A stretch of 64,000 bases of DNA, from positions 81,591 through 145,590 of the forward strand of contig JAUIET010000011.1 of assembly GCA_030429735.1 (NCBI GenBank). Direction: 5' to 3'. Made by a program: the position numbers and the translations under genes. The notes beneath the pieces are model-generated. The model made no database searches and was not told the DNA's origin. It saw only the letters and a program-made list of their open reading frames with translations. This DNA is from Gammaproteobacteria bacterium. Lineage in GTDB: Bacteria > Pseudomonadota > Gammaproteobacteria > Pseudomonadales > JAUIET01. Positions 2,747-56,630 of this stretch are shown in pieces (positions within the stretch are counted from its first letter, which is position 1; the number at the start of each line of letters is the position of its first letter).

Positions 2747-4111
2747 ATGACGAAACATGTACAAGAGCCAGCCCGACATGTTCCGGTGATTGCTGATTTT
2801 GATGTGTTAGTCGTTGGCAGTGGTCCGGCCGGGCTGGCCGCTGCAATTGCGGCAGCACGTGCCGGTGCAAACACGGCCCTGCTGGAGCGGTACGGGTGCT
2901 TTGGCGGCAATATAACCCAGGTGGGAGTGGAAGGTTTTGCCTGGTACCGGCACGAAACAACGGTGGACAGCGAGGGAATCGGTATAGAGTTTGAGCAACG
3001 GGCCAAACAGCTGGGAGCGACCTTACCGGAACCACAATCCATCAGCGAGTCACTGGACGGCGAGGCGTTCAAGTACGTGGCGGATGAAATGGTGATGGAA
3101 GCAGGAGTAAGCCCGTTGCTGCACCGGCTGTTTGTGGCGCCAGTTCTGGACGATGGCGCGATTATTGGTGTGATCGTTGAGAGCAAATCGGGCCGTGAGG
3201 CTATCATGGCCAAGAGGATTATTGATGCCACTGGCGATGCCGATGTTGCCAGTCGAGCGGGTGCGCTTGTTTGCAAAGCACCTCGCGAAGATCTGATGGG
3301 CGCATCGGTTATGTTCTCCATGAGCGGCGTCAATAAGACCGAGTTTATTGAGCATATAAAAGCCGACCCGCAAACCTATAGTGACTGGGCCGGTGGAGAA
3401 TGGACGATTGAAACATCAGGGAAGGAAGATGATATGTTTTCGCCTTTTCTGCGCAAACCCTTTGAGCTGGCGATCAAGAGCGGACTGATACCCGAAACTC
3501 TGAATACCCTTTGCGGGACCTGGGGCAGTATTTCGGAGCAGGGCGATTTGAGCTACCTTAATCTGGTCCACCTTGCGAATGTTGACGGAACTGACGCGCA
3601 AGACCTTAGCCGAGCGGAGATCGAGGGGCGGCAGCAAGCCATGTTGGCTATCAAGGCGCTCAAACAGTTTACACCGGGCTGCAACAACGCGAAGCTTCGT
3701 AATTTTGGAATGACGTTGGGTATTCGCGAAACCCGGAAAATAGATGGTGTCTATAATATGACCGCCTCAGATGTTCGCGAACAAGCCCGGTTTGAGGACA
3801 GTATTGGCATATTTCCAGAGTTTATTGATGGCTATGGTATTTTGATCCTGCCAACCACAGGTCGCTATTTCCAGCTTCCTTATCGCGCGCTGTTGCCCAA
3901 AGGAGTTGAGCACCTGCTGGTCGCGGGCCGCAGCATTGGTGGCGACAAAGACTCCCACGCGGCCGTTCGAAACATGATGTGTTGCGCTGTTACCGGGCAG
4001 GGGGCCGGTGTTGCTGCCGCCCTATCCGTACAGCAGAATTGCTCGCTGAAAAACCTGGATGTTGCTCTGGTGCAGGCGGAATTACTCAGGCAGGGCGCGA
4101 GAATTCATTAG
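2747..4111 (+). CDS. FAD-dependent oxidoreductase (GxGxxG, FAD_oxidored-type)
   Basis: 454 aa. The N-terminus DVLVVGSGPAGLAAAIAAARAGANTALLERYGCFGGN is a dinucleotide-binding motif. Divergent from the GMC gene. Its 3' end overlaps the convergent MFS gene by 26 nt. Confidence 0.75.
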   Translation: MTKHVQEPARHVPVIADFDVLVVGSGPAGLAAAIAAARAGANTALLERYGCFGGNITQVGVEGFAWYRHETTVDSEGIGIEFEQRAKQLGATLPEPQSISESLDGEAFKYVADEMVMEAGVSPLLHRLFVAPVLDDGAIIGVIVESKSGREAIMAKRIIDATGDADVASRAGALVCKAPREDLMGASVMFSMSGVNKTEFIEHIKADPQTYSDWAGGEWTIETSGKEDDMFSPFLRKPFELAIKSGLIPETLNTLCGTWGSISEQGDLSYLNLVHLANVDGTDAQDLSRAEIEGRQQAMLAIKALKQFTPGCNNAKLRNFGMTLGIRETRKIDGVYNMTASDVREQARFEDSIGIFPEFIDGYGILILPTTGRYFQLPYRALLPKGVEHLLVAGRSIGGDKDSHAAVRNMMCCAVTGQGAGVAAALSVQQNCSLKNLDVALVQAELLRQGARIH

Positions 4112-8967: not shown

Positions 8968-10175
8968 TTACGCGGCCCTGGTTCCCGGTTCGACGTAGAC
9001 GCCCACAACTGCGAGCACCACACTGACACAGGCGTAGCATGCACCCAATAAGGCCAGTAAATTGAAGCTAACGCCCAGATCCAGGCAAAGACCAATTATC
9101 ACCGGGGACAATGCAGAGGCGAGCACCATGATTGCCGACGTTGCAGACTTTATTGAACCAATGTTGGCAGTGCCGTAAAGCTCGGCGTAAAAAGGGCTCA
9201 ATGCGGTACCCAGCATACCGGTGCTGATTGACATCAGAATAAGAAAAGCACCGGCCGACCACGGTGCCGAGAAACTGGCCAGGAAAAACAGAGCGAAGGC
9301 CAATGGCAGGGGTAACCACGGCACAATACGCTCAGCGCCGAATGTATCGATGAGACGACCACAGAGCAGTGCGGCGACCATTGACGTTACGCCATACACG
9401 ATAAACCAGTTGCCCCAGTCCTGCAGCGACCACTGCTTGAACTCAACCAGCGCAATTTGATGAAAAATGAACCCCGTGAACAAAAGCGCGCCTGAAGAGG
9501 CTGCCGGTAAAAACAAGTAAAACCGTGCATCTCTCAACACCTCACTGCGGCTCCAGTCGGGTCTGGTATTGGGCTGATTCGCATGCTCGAGTGAGCGCAG
9601 GTATTGCGTGTGTCTGAACGTGTGACCACGTAACAAGAACATTACTAATGGTGCAAGGAAGACGATCAGAATGAGCGCCACGAACAGCAGTACTGACTGC
9701 CAGGAAAACAGCAGCATGGAAGCGATAACGATGGCCGGCAGCAATGCTTCACCGGCTCGATAGCCCATGCCGCTTAGCGCATTCGCGGTGCCGCGCTAAT
9801 ATACCTGACCATAGTTGTTCCGGCAGACATCACCATCAGCCCCTGGCCGAACTGTCGAAGCAGGAAAAACGCAACCAGCAATGTTAACACGTTGCTGCCG
9901 TAGGCCAGGGCGGCGCATCCGGTCGCGAGACCGGCAATCACAATTTGCGAAAAGACTCTTAGGTCGAGACGATCGATCAAGGTACCCGTCCAGACTACGG
10001 CTACCGCACTCAGTAGAGTAGCGGCCGAATAAACCGCACTGAATTCAGCGTGACTGAGGTTTAGGTGCTGACGCAAATCAGCGCTGAAATAGGCAATAAA
10101 AAAAGTCTGGCCAGGTGACGAGAACAGCGTCATCAAAAAGCCGAAAGCCAGCAATCGCCACTCTTTGCTTAACAT
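8968..10175 (-). pseudogene. MFS transporter interrupted by a frameshift (1-nt deletion near 9795)
   Basis: Two hydrophobic ORFs (9774-10175 and 8968-9768) are the N- and C-terminal parts of one MFS protein. The upstream frame ends ...TTMVRYISAAPRMR*. The -1 frame reads RGTANALSGMGYRAGEALLP, the conserved loop motif of this transporter type. Restoring one C in agc(c)gcggc would join them. Confidence 0.7.
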
Positions 10176-10184
10176 GCGAACTCA

Positions 10185-10477
10185 CTAGGGCAGCTCTGAA
10201 AAATACCCAATGCCTCTGCGCGGCCTGTAGCGTGCCGTGATGAGGCGCGTTCCGAAGGCCAGTGCTGGTCGCCTAAAGCGCCTACTGTTGGTGTCCCTGG
10301 CGAGGAGCGCAACGAAGTCACGGTGCGCTACAGGCCGCGCCCTCCGGGGCTTACAGGCGAATCCAGCCTTTTCGTTGCGAGTTTTTGGCGTACGGCCAGT
10401 ATGCCTGCAAACTCGCGCCTCAATGCTGGATTCGCCTGTATGCCAGAGGCATCGGGTATTTTTCAGAGCTGCCCTAG
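10185..10477. mobile_element. MITE-like non-autonomous element (293 bp incl. flanking TA; 31-bp TIRs, nested internal inverted repeats)
   Basis: Left end: ctaGGGCAGCTCTGAAAAATACCCAATGCCTCTG (10185-10218). Right end: CAGAGGCATCGGGTATTTTTCAGAGCTGCCCtag (10444-10477). TIR match is 30/31, and TA flanks both ends. Internal inverted repeats: GCGCGGCCTGTAGCG/CGCTACAGGCCGCGC, ACAGGCGAATCCAGC/GCTGGATTCGCCTGT and GCGAGTTT/AAACTCGC. There is no credible ORF. Confidence 0.65.
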
Positions 10478-10770
10478 ATGTTCCTGAGTAGATAAGAGTA
10501 GCTAAAGCCAGCCCAGGTACTGGCGCGCATAACGTGCCCGGGCTTTTCAATAAAGGTCTTATCCAGGAAGTCATTAACCTGGTTCCAGTCGTTAGAATAG
10601 TATGGGTGGCCCTTCAACGCGATTGGGTGCAGATAGTTATCTTCACGTTTGAGAACCTGCACTTGTATAACGCCATCGCGCAACTGCATTGCCAGCGCGT
10701 ATGTGTTTTCGGGGCTTATCCCCTCAATCGCATTGCGAACGCCCGAGATATCTTGGTCGGTAAATTGCAT
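10474..10770 (-). CDS. hypothetical protein (98 aa)
   Basis: ORF MQFTDQDISGVRNAIEGISPENTYALAMQL... has a non-repetitive, protein-like composition. Its stop codon TAG lies on the MITE terminal CTAG. No family was recognised. Confidence 0.45.
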   Translation of the reverse strand: MQFTDQDISGVRNAIEGISPENTYALAMQLRDGVIQVQVLKREDNYLHPIALKGHPYYSNDWNQVNDFLDKTFIEKPGHVMRASTWAGFSYSYLLRNI

Positions 10771-11054
10771 CGTTTAAGCCTGTGTTACCCAAAATCCAAA
10801 GTGCCGGGTAAACTGGGTTTTATCGCAGCTTACCAGAGGCCCATAAGGTTCCACGGAGGCGTGAGCCTCGAACAAAGCAGGTCTAAACAACGCCGCGCTG
10901 GCAACATCGGATGCTTTGAACTCCATCCAGCCATGATTATGCCATAGATAGAAGAGCCAAGGTGTGCAAACTCGACCATTGGAGTTTGTTGGCGACAGAC
11001 AGCGGTTTCCGGAGCGTGTGCTGGACGCTAAGTGCTAGCGGTAGTACCGTTCAT

Positions 11055-11801
11055 TCAGTCAGAACCGTCGCGGCGCACCATTGGGCTGAACAGTCCGTAT
11101 TTCCAGGACCGCATCGCCATCACCACCGTTACGCCGTGGCGCTCGCTCAGGCTGAGAGAAGCGTCTTCATTGTTCAACTCGTCAAACTCGCGGATTAAAC
11201 GCATTAGCTTGCGCTGGAATTCGGCATTGGAATTGTTGGACAGCATGCCGTTCAGAACAAGCAGCCGCTCACCGTCTCGATCAAACCGGGTGCGAAAGTA
11301 CTCCCTGCCAATTTTATCCTGAAAGAAGCGCTGGATAGGGCCGTTATCTCGCCATGCAAAATTAGGGGCAATCAGCAGCTTGATTCGATTTTTAGGCAGC
11401 AACTCAATGATTTTAAGCTTGTCGAGCAGCGCGAGTTTTTGAATGCAGTCAGTTTCGCTGATCTTGTAATAGCTGCAAATGTCTTCCAGCGTCCAGCGAT
11501 TTAATGCGCAGATGGTGACCAGTAACAACTCGAGGTCATCGGCGATCTGTTGCTCTTTTTCAACATCAAGTTGTTGCAGCAATGGCGAGCGTTCGTGCAT
11601 TTGCTGAACCAGGTCAGAAATTTCCATGCCCAGCATCGAGCAGGTTTGTTCCAACCGCTGCAAAGTGAAGCTATTGTCTGAAAACAGGCGTTTGACGCTG
11701 GCTTCGGACAATTGCAAGGTTTCAGCGACGTCTGCGTAGGTTTTACCATGCGCTTTTAGGGCTGATTTTAAGGTCTGAATAAGAGGTTTAACCTGAGCCA
11801 T
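11055..11801 (-). CDS. XRE-family helix-turn-helix transcriptional regulator with ~180-aa C-terminal domain
   Basis: HTH segment KTYADVAETLQLSEASVKRLFSDNSFTLQRLEQTCSMLGMEISDL. The ATG at 11801 (MAQVKPLIQTLK) is preferred because AAGGTG lies 8 nt upstream. The ORF-track start at 11924 adds an implausible N-terminal extension. Confidence 0.75.
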   Translation of the reverse strand: MAQVKPLIQTLKSALKAHGKTYADVAETLQLSEASVKRLFSDNSFTLQRLEQTCSMLGMEISDLVQQMHERSPLLQQLDVEKEQQIADDLELLLVTICALNRWTLEDICSYYKISETDCIQKLALLDKLKIIELLPKNRIKLLIAPNFAWRDNGPIQRFFQDKIGREYFRTRFDRDGERLLVLNGMLSNNSNAEFQRKLMRLIREFDELNNEDASLSLSERHGVTVVMAMRSWKYGLFSPMVRRDGSD

Positions 11802-11939
11802 GATAAGCACACCTTGATAGTTGGTATTATATTTTAATACTTTACGGTCAATGAAATGCAACTTGGCGATAAAAGGTTTTATTGTGTGTTCGTGCGCTTG
11901 ATACTGCTGCTTCACAGTAAGCATCAGGTAAAGCGATCA

Positions 11940-12287
11940 ATGACTCAGAATAAAAGCAATAACTCTGCAGAGAACACCCGCGCTGTTGTGCGCGCCGCAA
12001 TTCGAGATTGTAGATCGAGCAGTGTGCAAGCCCGCATTCGCAGGACACGCGTTGAGCGTAATATCGCGAACCTTCGCTACCAGCAGCGCTGGGCACGGGA
12101 TGCTGATGAGGCGAAGCGCATTGAAGCGAAATTGCTGCAGAACCTGCAACTCTGCGAAAGGGTGCTTAGAAACCTGGCTGACGCTGAAACGCAGCTACAA
12201 GCACTGTTAAAAATGGACAGAGAATTGCAGATAGGGATTCGAGCTGATTTGGTAGCGAGCGACGGTCTTCGGCCGGCTCTAAACTAA
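11940..12287 (+). CDS. hypothetical Arg-rich coiled-coil protein (115 aa)
   Basis: The ORF from the ATG at 11940 reads MTQNKSNNSAENTRAVVRAAIRD... It is divergent from the XRE regulator. Heptad-like, charged sequence. No family was recognised. Confidence 0.4.
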   Translation: MTQNKSNNSAENTRAVVRAAIRDCRSSSVQARIRRTRVERNIANLRYQQRWARDADEAKRIEAKLLQNLQLCERVLRNLADAETQLQALLKMDRELQIGIRADLVASDGLRPALN

Positions 12288-12677
12288 GTGCCAGCGTGAC
12301 TTCTACGAATTCACTTAAAATAACTGCTTTAAGCTCTTGTAATTAATGGTGAAAGGAGGCTAAATCGTACCTGCGGTATCTACGTAATCAGGATTAGCGG
12401 TTCAAAACAAGGTATTGGTGGTTATGGGGAGCATTTTTGGCTGGTATACTGGCTAAAAAATGCGCATAATCATAAAAAAGAAGCAGTCACCGAATTTAAG
12501 AACCGCAGTACTACGTCCACCTGGACACCGATTGGTGGGCGCAAGAGATTGTGGGAGAAAGAGCATGATGGAAGTTTTGGCCTATTTAGAGGTCGCTTTC
12601 TTTGTTGGGTCAGTAATTTACGTCGCATGGTATTGGTAGCCGGCGGTTACAAATAGCAGCGGAAGCAATATCCGGTG

Positions 12678-45034: not shown

Positions 45035-45095
45035 CGGCGGAGCCAAATACGAAAAAAGGCCGCTAGTGCGACCTTTTTTCGTATTTGGCTCCGCC
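45035..45095. terminator. long perfect hairpin / bidirectional rho-independent terminator overlapping the 3' end of tRNA-Asn
   Basis: GGCGGAGCCAAATACGAAAAAAGG (45035-58) pairs with CCTTTTTTCGTATTTGGCTCCGCC (45072-95). The inner CGC/GCG pair extends the stem. A/T6 runs on both arms give T-tracts in either orientation. Confidence 0.6.
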
Positions 45096-45161
45096 TGCTG
45101 GGCTCGAACCAGCGACCCAATGATTAACAGTCATTTGCTCTACCAACTGAGCTAAGGCGGA
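45086..45161 (-). tRNA. tRNA-Asn (anticodon GTT)
   Basis: The reverse complement folds by hand into a cloverleaf: TCCGCCT-TA-GCTC-AGTTGGTA-GAGC-A-AATGA-CTGTTAA-TCATT-GGGTC-GCTGG-TTCGAGC-CCAGC-AGGCGGA-G-CCA. 76 nt. Confidence 0.9.
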
Positions 45162-47554: not shown

Positions 47555-47631
47555 ACGACCGTAGCTCAGTTGGTTAGAGCACCACCTTGACATGGTGGGG
47601 GTCGGTGGTTCGAATCCACTCGGTCGTACCA
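47555..47631 (+). tRNA. tRNA-Val (anticodon GAC)
   Basis: Cloverleaf: ACGACCG-TA-GCTC-AGTTGGTTA-GAGC-A-CCACC-TTGACAT-GGTGG-GGGTC-GGTGG-TTCGAAT-CCACT-CGGTCGT-A-CCA. The body is nearly identical to the E. coli tRNA-Val(GAC) as recalled. It lies 90 nt upstream of thrS. Confidence 0.9.
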
Positions 47632-55139: not shown

Positions 55140-55484
55140 ACGATATCCATTTTCCTCAACCTCTGTACAGTTTGAAGTTTACCCCCTAATTATCTGATTC
55201 CAGAGGCAAAGTAGCTCAATAGTGCTGTGCTGCACTGCGCTGTTGATGTCTTGTATCGCCGGCCCAAAATCACGTCGTTATATGGGGGTAGCGGGAATGG
55301 ATTATTCGCATTCAATAGTTGTTAGCTTTGCTGAATTTTTGCGTCTATCGGTTGACAGAAATTGCCTCATCAGCCAGTCTACGCACCCTTCGAATCAAAG
55401 CAAAAAAGTGCCTTCGCACCTGTGTGTTTTGAATCGAATTTACTCTAGATGTTCGTCACTTCTTACTGAGAGCATCATGATATT

Positions 55485-55561
55485 CGGGGCGTAGCGCAGC
55501 TTGGTAGCGCACCACACTGGGGGTGTGGTGGTCGCAGGTTCAAATCCTGCCGTCCCGACCA
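55485..55561 (+). tRNA. tRNA-Pro (anticodon GGG)
   Basis: Cloverleaf: CGGGGCG-TA-GCGC-AGCTTGGTA-GCGC-A-CCACA-CTGGGGG-TGTGG-TGGTC-GCAGG-TTCAAAT-CCTGC-CGTCCCG-A-CCA. 77 nt. Confidence 0.9.
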
Positions 55562-55570
55562 ATTTTTGAC

Positions 55571-56154
55571 GGTCTGTTCTGGTCTATCAGGTTATTCAGC
55601 TTCAGTAGAATTGCATCTCCGGGGTTGGACGGCGGATTGCCGGTCCGCAAGCACAGCTTGCGGCCGTTCGCGCCTCGCGAAGCGGTGCTTCACGTTTCGC
55701 GTTGCGAAACCGGCGCTCACCCTGCCGTCCCACTTCGATGAGAGTTGGGGGCTGCTGCTATTTTCTAGTGGTCCGCTCCGGTTTATCAGGTTATTCAGCT
55801 TCAGTAGAATTGCATCTCCGGGGTTGGACGGCGGATTGCCGGTCCGCAGGCACAGCTTGCGGCCGTTCGCGCCTCGCGAAGCGGTGCTTCACGTTTCGCG
55901 TTGCGAAACCGGCGCTCACCCTGCCGTCCCACTTCGATGAGAGTTGGGGGCTGCTGCTATTTTCTAGCGGTCCGCTCCGGTTTATCAGGTTATTCAGCTT
56001 TAGTAGAATTGCATCTCCGGGGTTGGATGGCGGATTGCCGGTCCGCAAGCACAGCTTGCGGCCGTTCGCGCCTCGCGAAGCGGTACTTCACGTTTCGCGT
56101 TGCGAAACCGGCGCTCACCCTGCCGTCCCACTTCGATGAGAGTTGGGGGGCTGC
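55571..56154 (+). repeat. tandem array of ~2.9 copies of a 199-bp unit just downstream of tRNA-Pro (candidate structured ncRNA modules)
   Basis: The landmark gttattcagc recurs at 55591, 55790 and 55989, so the period is 199. Only 5 substitutions were seen between copies. Each unit ends with cctgccgtccca, which copies the tRNA-Pro 3' segment cctgccgtccc. Confidence 0.9.
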
Positions 56155-56237
56155 ATCGGCTGAGTGAAATCGTGGATCTTGCTGAAATGGTTGTGGTATT
56201 TTGACTGTGAAAATGTAGCGGCGGGGCGAGTAAAACG

Positions 56238-56630
56238 GTGAGTGACGTTGTGGCGTGTTGGCGGTGTGGGGCTGTTCTGCAAAATCTTATCTTGCCTCTG
56301 TCGCGACGTGAAGAATGTTCTGCATGTGCGGCCGATCAGCATGTTTGCAAGATGTGCGAGTACTTTGAAGCCAATACTATTGTGCAGTGCACGGAGGAGC
56401 GCGCTGAACCGCCTGGCGATAAGGAAGCGGCCAATTTCTGTGACTACTTTTCTCTGAACAAGGCGGGCGCTACTGCCACTCATTCAGCGGAACGCGCCCG
56501 ACAACAGCTCGATGAGTTATTCGGTGGTGCCGTCGGTTCGCTCGCTGAACACGAGCCCACAGATCCCGATCCCGGTAGCGCGAATGCATTTGATGCGGAG
56601 GCCGAGCTTAGAAAATTATTTGACGACTAG
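56238..56630 (+). CDS. hypothetical Cys-rich (zinc-ribbon-like) protein with acidic C-terminus
   Basis: GTG start. Cys pairs: CWRCG...CSAC...CKMCEYF...C...C. 130 aa. No family was recognised. Confidence 0.5.
   Translation: MSDVVACWRCGAVLQNLILPLSRREECSACAADQHVCKMCEYFEANTIVQCTEERAEPPGDKEAANFCDYFSLNKAGATATHSAERARQQLDELFGGAVGSLAEHEPTDPDPGSANAFDAEAELRKLFDD

Follow-up and report, generated by a model that had tools for sequence, protein, structure and literature searches.

A candidate rtT-type array of tRNA-linked repeats attached to tRNA-Pro(GGG) in an uncultured gammaproteobacterium

What is the repeated DNA that directly follows a tRNA-Pro(GGG) gene in an uncultured marine-type gammaproteobacterium, and why does every repeat end in a piece of that tRNA? 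We explored this question in 64,000 nt of Gammaproteobacteria bacterium (GenBank assembly GCA_030429735.1, contig JAUIET010000011.1, positions 81,591 to 145,590 of the forward strand; this whole stretch is hereafter the window), in which a first-pass annotation had noticed three tandem 199-bp units downstream of the tRNA and had proposed an independently evolved analogue of the tyrT/rtT region of Escherichia coli. We propose, with a probability of about 0.6, that the array is an rtT-type array of tRNA-linked repeats (TLRs) representing a new sequence family attached to tRNA-Pro(GGG).

Tandem Repeats Finder placed the array at 55570-56154, with a period of 199 bp, 2.9 copies, 96% matches and 0 indels, and the landmark gttattcagc recurs at 55591, 55790 and 55989, exactly as first annotated. 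Each unit comprises an unstructured, AU-rich linker of ~65 nt, then a GC-rich structured core of ~105-110 nt. The tRNA itself ends in the 16 nt CCTGCCGTCCCGACCA, source of the segment copied at each unit's end, and the 11-mer CCTGCCGTCCC, corresponding to the T-stem 3' strand plus most of the acceptor 3' strand, is found exactly four times on the + strand, once in the tRNA (55546) and once in each unit (55721, 55920 and 56119), which bears out the earlier observation that every unit closes with this duplicate. Since the units are 96-97% identical to each other, they were recently duplicated or homogenised; no other copy is found within the 64-kb window. The locus is organised as follows.

55485-55561, + strand: tRNA-Pro(GGG) gene (ARAGORN; Rfam tRNA model, 64 bits)
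55562-55626, + strand: linker 1, the AU-rich tRNA trailer (~65 nt), kept across genomes in length, not in sequence, without intrinsic terminator
55627-55731, + strand: core 1, with closing helix P1, helix P3 and hairpins H1, H2 and H3 (folding, alignment, pair counts), ending in the tRNA-derived CCTGCCGTCCC at 55721-31
55732-55760, + strand: window-specific segment acttcgatgagagttgggggctgctgcta, aligned at the place of GACCAA of the tRNA and relatives, the ACCA tail being gone; again at 55931-55959 and in part at 56130-56150
55761-55825, + strand: linker 2, with a promoter-like TTATCA-16-TAGAAT at 55783-55810
55826-55930, + strand: core 2, with a G.U pair in H1 owing to A>G at 55849
55960-56024, + strand: linker 3, with a promoter-like site at 55982-56009
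56025-56129, + strand: core 3, with U.G in P1 (C>T at 56028) and a C.A mismatch in H2 (G>A at 56085)
56130-56155, + strand: array end, unit homology ceasing at ~56150-56154

The copies had been described as differing at only five places. All five (55769/55968, 55849, 56001, 56028 and 56085) are real, but a position-by-position comparison revealed eight more, all in the initial 23 nt of unit 1 (55562-55584); this part of the tRNA trailer is only ~75% like the units that follow and is thus a more diverged version of the inter-unit sequence. Three of the five listed substitutions, rather than two, fall in stems, since 56085 lies in the stem of H2. The argument that G.U pairs mark the + strand as the RNA fails as well, because stem transitions over all copies amount to 3-4 G.U vs 3 C.A, and strand assignment by such counts was rejected.

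Does the arrangement exist elsewhere? An anchored DNA pattern scan over 185,579 species genomes matched two records only, both metagenome-assembled genomes (MAGs) of Pseudomonadales and both at the tRNA-Pro locus. In SGMAG-17 (SG17, L012), tRNA-Pro(GGG) is followed by two tandem 175-bp units (2.1 copies), and in SGMAG-84 (SG84, L002 = L011) by one unit and ~40 nt of a diverged second linker (~1.3 copies). In the window as in SG17 and SG84, units share the strand of tRNA-Pro(GGG) and begin 0-10 nt 3' of it, so that linkage to this tRNA holds in three of three genomes while copy number varies (1.3, 2.1, 2.9). The genes downstream differ in all three, which indicates that the unit travels with the tRNA and not with a neighbouring gene. 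Moreover, linkers cannot be aligned between genomes and cores are 81-92% identical, arguing that selection acts on the core. From the CCTGCC of the tRNA to that of the next copy there are 175 nt in each of the three genomes; the tRNA-to-unit-1 spacing in the window is thus 175 nt, and its period is 199 and not 175 because the window-specific segment substitutes 24-29 nt for GACCAA after each core. The pattern that the first-pass annotation would have taken as refutation, dispersal over many loci beside integrase or transposase genes, was not seen, the tRNA-Pro locus being the only site in the scan. REP-like dispersed palindromic repeats were also considered and rejected, as there is no further copy in the 64-kb window and, elsewhere, only the tRNA-Pro locus of the two MAGs.

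This organisation recalls the TLRs, a class defined, after Egan & Landy 1978 and Rudd 1999, by 1-5 units per locus whose last 18-19 bp repeat exactly those of the tRNA or rRNA before them (PMC8144298). E. coli has 22 such sequences, spread over ten tRNA or rRNA operon loci. Their transcription and processing have been reported, and it has been proposed that the repeat recruits RNase E or directs its cleavage (PMC8144298). In the window, SG17 and SG84 alike, the units lie directly downstream of a stable-RNA gene in the same orientation, and their numbers (2.9, 2.1 and ~1.3) fall within the range of 1-5 per locus. The identical 3' end is 19-20 nt long in the two relatives, where CCTGCCGTCCCGACCAA(T/A)TT, at the end of unit 1 in SG17 and of the unit in SG84, is an exact copy that includes discriminator A, CCA and the first trailer bases, whereas only the 11 nt of CCTGCCGTCCC remain in the window. 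The window copies are a derived form of units that in relatives have the full TLR end; lacking ACCA, they may be processed differently or be on their way out.

We then asked whether the core has a structure that evolution has kept. In the structure tested, P1 has 9 bp (55627-35 with 55722-30), H1 (55645-63) is extended by three pairs (55641-43 with 55664-66), and P3 (55670-74 with 55712-16) encloses H2 (55677-93) and H3 (55694-710). The closing helix, of 9-12 bp, pairs the 5' segment GGGACGGCGG with CCUGCCGUCCC, the copy of the tRNA T-stem/acceptor 3' strand, after which GACCA follows in relatives, and three triloop hairpins make up the interior. A closing helix that uses the tRNA-derived segment as its 3' strand had been predicted, as had the hairpins, and both are present; the "cloverleaf-like" interior was not upheld, as triloop hairpins with no match to a tRNA model take its place. 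Six cores were aligned without internal gaps (alignment A1), and the 39 pairs were scored against controls in which the partner was slid by 1-3 columns and against 500 shuffles. Standard pairs filled 95.7% of cells, and five pairs showed two-sided changes with pairing kept, vs 0-1 in the slid controls and none in the 500 shuffles. The version first proposed, with a GCCG/CGGC second helix in place of P3, has four pairs with compensatory two-sided changes; this helix competes with P3, which has covariation support. The core structure is kept over the three lineages, with compensatory changes. Folding energies also exceeded those of dinucleotide shuffles (199-nt unit, z = -2.6; core, z = -3.8 to -4.5), and each lineage folded alone gave one common shape (z = -4.2 to -4.5). 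The element was oriented by its linkage to the tRNA strand, which never varies, and by a single fixed G.U in the middle of helix P1. Two candidates were set aside: the RNAalifold consensus fused H2 and H3 into one long helix that is broken in SG84, and we kept the separate, covarying H2 and H3 together with RNAalifold's P3; a GTTCGAA-like motif at the H1-H2 junction, tried as a T-loop copy, is not conserved in the window and is unlike the T-loop of this tRNA.

The closest known design is RtT (Rfam RF00391; gene rttR) of the E. coli tyrT locus. Used as positive control, that locus gave four matches to the RtT model (133-138 bits) at a period of 178 bp. In its consensus, a 5' GGGGAAGGA pairs with the tRNA-Tyr-derived AUCCUUCCCC, with hairpins inside and a single-stranded CCACCACCA tail. 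The two systems resemble each other in standing in tandem directly after a tRNA (178 bp x 3.1 vs 175-199 bp x 1.3-2.9 here), in ending each unit with a copy of the tRNA 3' end, in closing the unit by a helix of its 5' segment with the tRNA-derived T-stem/acceptor 3' strand, with hairpins inside and a CCA-containing tail, and in core length (~110-116 nt). In SG17 and SG84 the folds match this consensus, with a 12-bp closing helix and a 4-nt CCA(A) tail, the discriminator A being drawn into the helix; the window keeps the helix without the tail. The claim of an independent analogue thus held for linkage, copy-number variation, conserved core and closing helix, and not for the ACCA, which the window has lost. 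In contrast, there is no sequence or covariance-model similarity in either direction: the RtT model found nothing in the window at the gathering score or at E<=10, nor did any Rfam family besides tRNA, and a covariance model built from our own cores missed the E. coli tyrT locus, which makes the array an analogue and not a member of the RtT family. The two further differ in their tRNA and hosts (tRNA-Tyr in Enterobacterales vs Pro-GGG in uncultured Pseudomonadales/Cellvibrionales-like MAGs), in the end of the unit (9 nt single-stranded in rtT, whereas here the helix spans nearly the whole acceptor strand and leaves (G)ACCA), and in the interior, which here consists of three triloop hairpins, with window copies that lack ACCA.

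Other E. coli TLRs, including RrA, RrB and RrF after 5S rRNA, likewise sit in a stable-RNA operon, repeat the upstream 3' end and occur at 1-5 per locus, and TLRs are proposed to take over the signal by which RNase E processes the upstream RNA (PMC8144298). RrA/B/F, the only ones with an assigned function, are framed by a terminator on either side, bear GGA motifs and bind Hfq and CsrA (PMC8144298); no such features were seen in the present array, where no search aimed at them was made. RNAs from the 3' external transcribed spacer of tRNA precursors (3'ETS-leuZ, in PMC8144298) are similar as persisting, functional by-products of precursor processing, but they are single and non-repeated, have no tRNA-end mimic, and have an sRNA-sponge function shown experimentally.

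How might such an array work? Co-transcription with the tRNA and excision by tRNA-processing nucleases is most likely. No intrinsic terminator separates tRNA and units in the window, SG17 or SG84, as first annotated for the window, and because of this the array would be read through from the tRNA-Pro promoter. The closing helix would mimic the coaxial acceptor/T-stem stack with its NCCA tail (the 12-bp helix of SG17 has the length of that stack), and this mimic, together with the AU-rich linker that follows it, would present the same signals as tRNA 3' maturation, so that tRNA-maturing enzymes would cut the transcript at each mimic. The cuts might be made by RNase E within the AU-rich linker that follows the CCA-like end and by 3' exonucleases, with RNase P possibly acting on the 5' flank of the helix. 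One stable, structured RNA of ~110-175 nt would thus be released per unit, in an amount that tracks transcription of the tRNA, and copy number (1 to 3) would change by unequal recombination between units. That TLR modules are a general convergent device, in which a structured RNA takes on the acceptor/T-stem identity of the tRNA before it for excision and perhaps for CCA repair or protection, is a wider idea that we consider rather unlikely; if true, it would yield a stable RNA whose dose reports transcription of the tRNA operon.

Several observations weigh against reading the array as a TLR array. The hairpins of the minus strand fold about equally well (z = -3.0), and the G.U vs C.A balance gives no strand signal. 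All four hairpin covariations stem from one lineage, SG84, and the covariation statistics are thin because there are only three independent lineages. The window units keep 11 nt of the tRNA end and have lost ACCA, which makes the tRNA-end mimic weakest in the very genome under study. Moreover, core similarity (window 55627-55731, L012 6710-6814 and L002 4501-4605) is discordant with that of the flanking genes: between window and SG17 the core is 92% identical vs 82-83% in ihfA/merR DNA and 71% in PheT protein, and between window and SG84 it is 81% vs 88-91% and 83%, respectively. Horizontal movement or exchange, birth and death of units, or faster structure-preserving change in SG84 are possible explanations.

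The alternative that survives best, although it is unlikely, is that the element acts at the level of DNA or transcription, its GC-rich hairpin cluster being a pause site, a Rho-dependent termination zone or an insulator for the strongly transcribed tRNA gene, and any released RNA being functionless. Where units are present there is no intrinsic terminator, and L038, which has no units, carries a canonical one right after tRNA-Pro; the hairpins, as said, fold on both strands; and in E. coli, tyrT transcription ends Rho-dependently inside its repeat region. A termination role leaves unexplained, however, why each unit ends in tRNA 3' sequence with a complement ~90 nt upstream, and why the long-range helices P1 and P3 are conserved. 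Such a role is compatible with the TLR reading and explains less.

Barely behind it, and also improbable, is the possibility that the tRNA-end copies are attL/attR-type repeats, the units being integration scars or a mini cis-mobilizable element. An integrative element would have entered the tRNA-Pro 3' end in the past, leaving a short remnant or non-autonomous passenger duplicated by tandem accretion. A segment bounded by direct repeats of a tRNA 3' end is the classic mark of integration, and this is what we find here. In this clade, tRNA-Pro(GGG) serves as an integration site: integrase and prophage-like genes begin ~60 nt after the tRNA in L001 (11937-20309), and in L036 an N-terminal fragment of an Arm-DNA-binding integrase and IS66 genes follow it (9410-12650). 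Downstream genes that differ in every genome and the discordance of core and flanks would also fit. Yet in the window, SG17 and SG84 alike, the units have no integrase or mobile-element gene nearby, 175 bp is far too little for an autonomous element, and mobile-element relatives did not appear: IMG/VR patterns gave only chance matches or, for a structure-agnostic pattern of tRNA end plus its complement in viral contigs, none, and the INPHARED phage and PLSDB plasmid collections gave none with blastn in distant mode. Metagenome and viral scans with core anchors returned chance matches only, none homologous and none tRNA-linked. The units do not retain the T-loop overlap region of the tRNA, compensatory changes keep their hairpins, and in an att site a 5' strand that complements the tRNA end would serve no purpose. 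The same design in E. coli rtT is a transcribed and processed RNA.

Less probable still are decaying, functionless duplicates of tRNA-Pro. The 3'-terminal 11-20 nt are identical to the tRNA, and 5 of 7 positions agree between the 5' strand in SG17 (UGGGACG) and the acceptor 5' strand of the tRNA (CGGGGCG); against this, ARAGORN and the Rfam tRNA model (RF00005) find the genuine tRNA only, even at E<=10, the core interior has no similarity to tRNA, and conservation of this interior exceeds that of the linkers and includes compensatory changes, the reverse of what neutral decay would leave. That the repeats hold small protein genes, as the 29-aa ORF tpr annotated inside E. coli rtT might suggest, is very improbable despite long open reading frames (ORFs) that span units on both strands, and the original judgement against coding was right: periods of 199 and 175 are both 3n+1, so that ORFs change frame between units, there are no Pfam matches and no homologues among 5.8 billion proteins (query: a spurious 145-aa ORF), and the 20 nucleotide changes between window and SG84 translate, in the best frame, into ~12 amino-acid changes over 34 codons (read off the alignment), i.e. 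they are mostly non-synonymous.

Other members of the clade add a possible fourth case. L037 has TTGGGACGGCAG, a perfect 12-nt complement of the tRNA 3' strand, 30 nt downstream of the tRNA (3408-3420), a decayed tRNA-end copy CCTCCCGTCCGA at 3549-3560, 185 nt from the copy in the tRNA, and a 14-nt string, TCGTTGTTCTTTGG, in common with the SG17 linker. The covariance model built from our own cores does not detect it. Since the model misses it and only the 14-nt string and the tRNA-complementary segment are shared, we keep 3380-3566 of L037 as a possible degenerate relative only. Its minimum-energy fold (tRNA plus trailer) pairs TTGGGACGGCAG with the tRNA itself, and since the module's 5' strand can pair just as well with the 3' strand of the genuine tRNA, it could, in a sharper and likewise rather unlikely version of the wider idea above, act in cis as an anti-acceptor switch that tunes maturation of tRNA-Pro(GGG). 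Outgroups, genomes of lower PheT identity, comprise L037, L038 with its terminator, L001 and L036 with their integrases, and L034, where an opposing gene follows tRNA-Pro; exact-protein look-ups supplied useful outgroups.

Logan short-read contigs of the clade (L003, L004, L005, L006, L009 and L031-L033) mostly end inside or right after tRNA-Pro. Such ends fit a repeat that the assembler cannot resolve, or a variable region downstream; most of these contigs, breaking inside the tRNA, are uninformative on the trailer. The copy numbers in MAGs, including the 2.9 of the window, may thus be under- or mis-assembled.

Within the window, the TLR arrangement is specific to tRNA-Pro: the two other tRNAs, Asn-GTT (45086-45161) and Val-GAC (47555-47631), have no copy of their 3' end within 2 kb downstream. 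The promoter-like TTATCA-16-TAGAAT stands just 5' of the core in units 2 and 3, and unit 1 has CTATCA; three promoter-like sites in the region are within chance expectation (2.2 in shuffles), and the site is absent from the linkers of relatives.

The array region lies in a conserved block, pheS-pheT-ihfA-merR, and is followed by a small Cys-rich ORF and gpsA. This ORF (56238-56630, 130 aa, CxxC...CxxC...CxxC, no Pfam match) starts 80 nt after the array and is absent downstream of the units in SG17 and SG84. Upstream of tRNA-Pro, ~150 nt are 80-84% conserved in the 83% PheT group (55330-55484; L001 11696-11859; L002 4194-4357); in the window this region has a perfect TTGACA and, between putative promoter and tRNA, a long inverted repeat, ttcgaatcaaagc...gttttgaatcgaa, at ~55391-55440. 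The upstream region of SG17 and of more distant relatives is short, differs from this one and has GGTATCATACGCG. A fatty-acid hydroxylase gene lies on the opposite strand between merR and tRNA-Pro in several relatives with identical IhfA (L001-L005, L007, L009; 10650-11681 in L001, 3147-4178 in L002), and neither the window (55140-55330) nor SG17 has it.

The array by itself reveals no new mechanism. Most E. coli TLRs, described in 1978, still have no assigned function (PMC8144298), and, judged from sequence, the array would be a second family of TLR design, unrelated in sequence to E. coli rtT, on a different tRNA and in a distant lineage. In both, a copy of the tRNA 3' end pairs with an internal complement and encloses hairpins, the period is ~175-178 nt and the copy number varies. 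The recurrence of this design on another tRNA and in a distant lineage argues for selection of the design itself and against an accident of enterobacterial history, and the comparison would single out the tRNA-end mimic as the functional core and conserved principle. With its covariation, natural loss of the ACCA tail and copy-number variants, the tRNA-Pro(GGG) array may offer a comparative handle on the role of TLRs.

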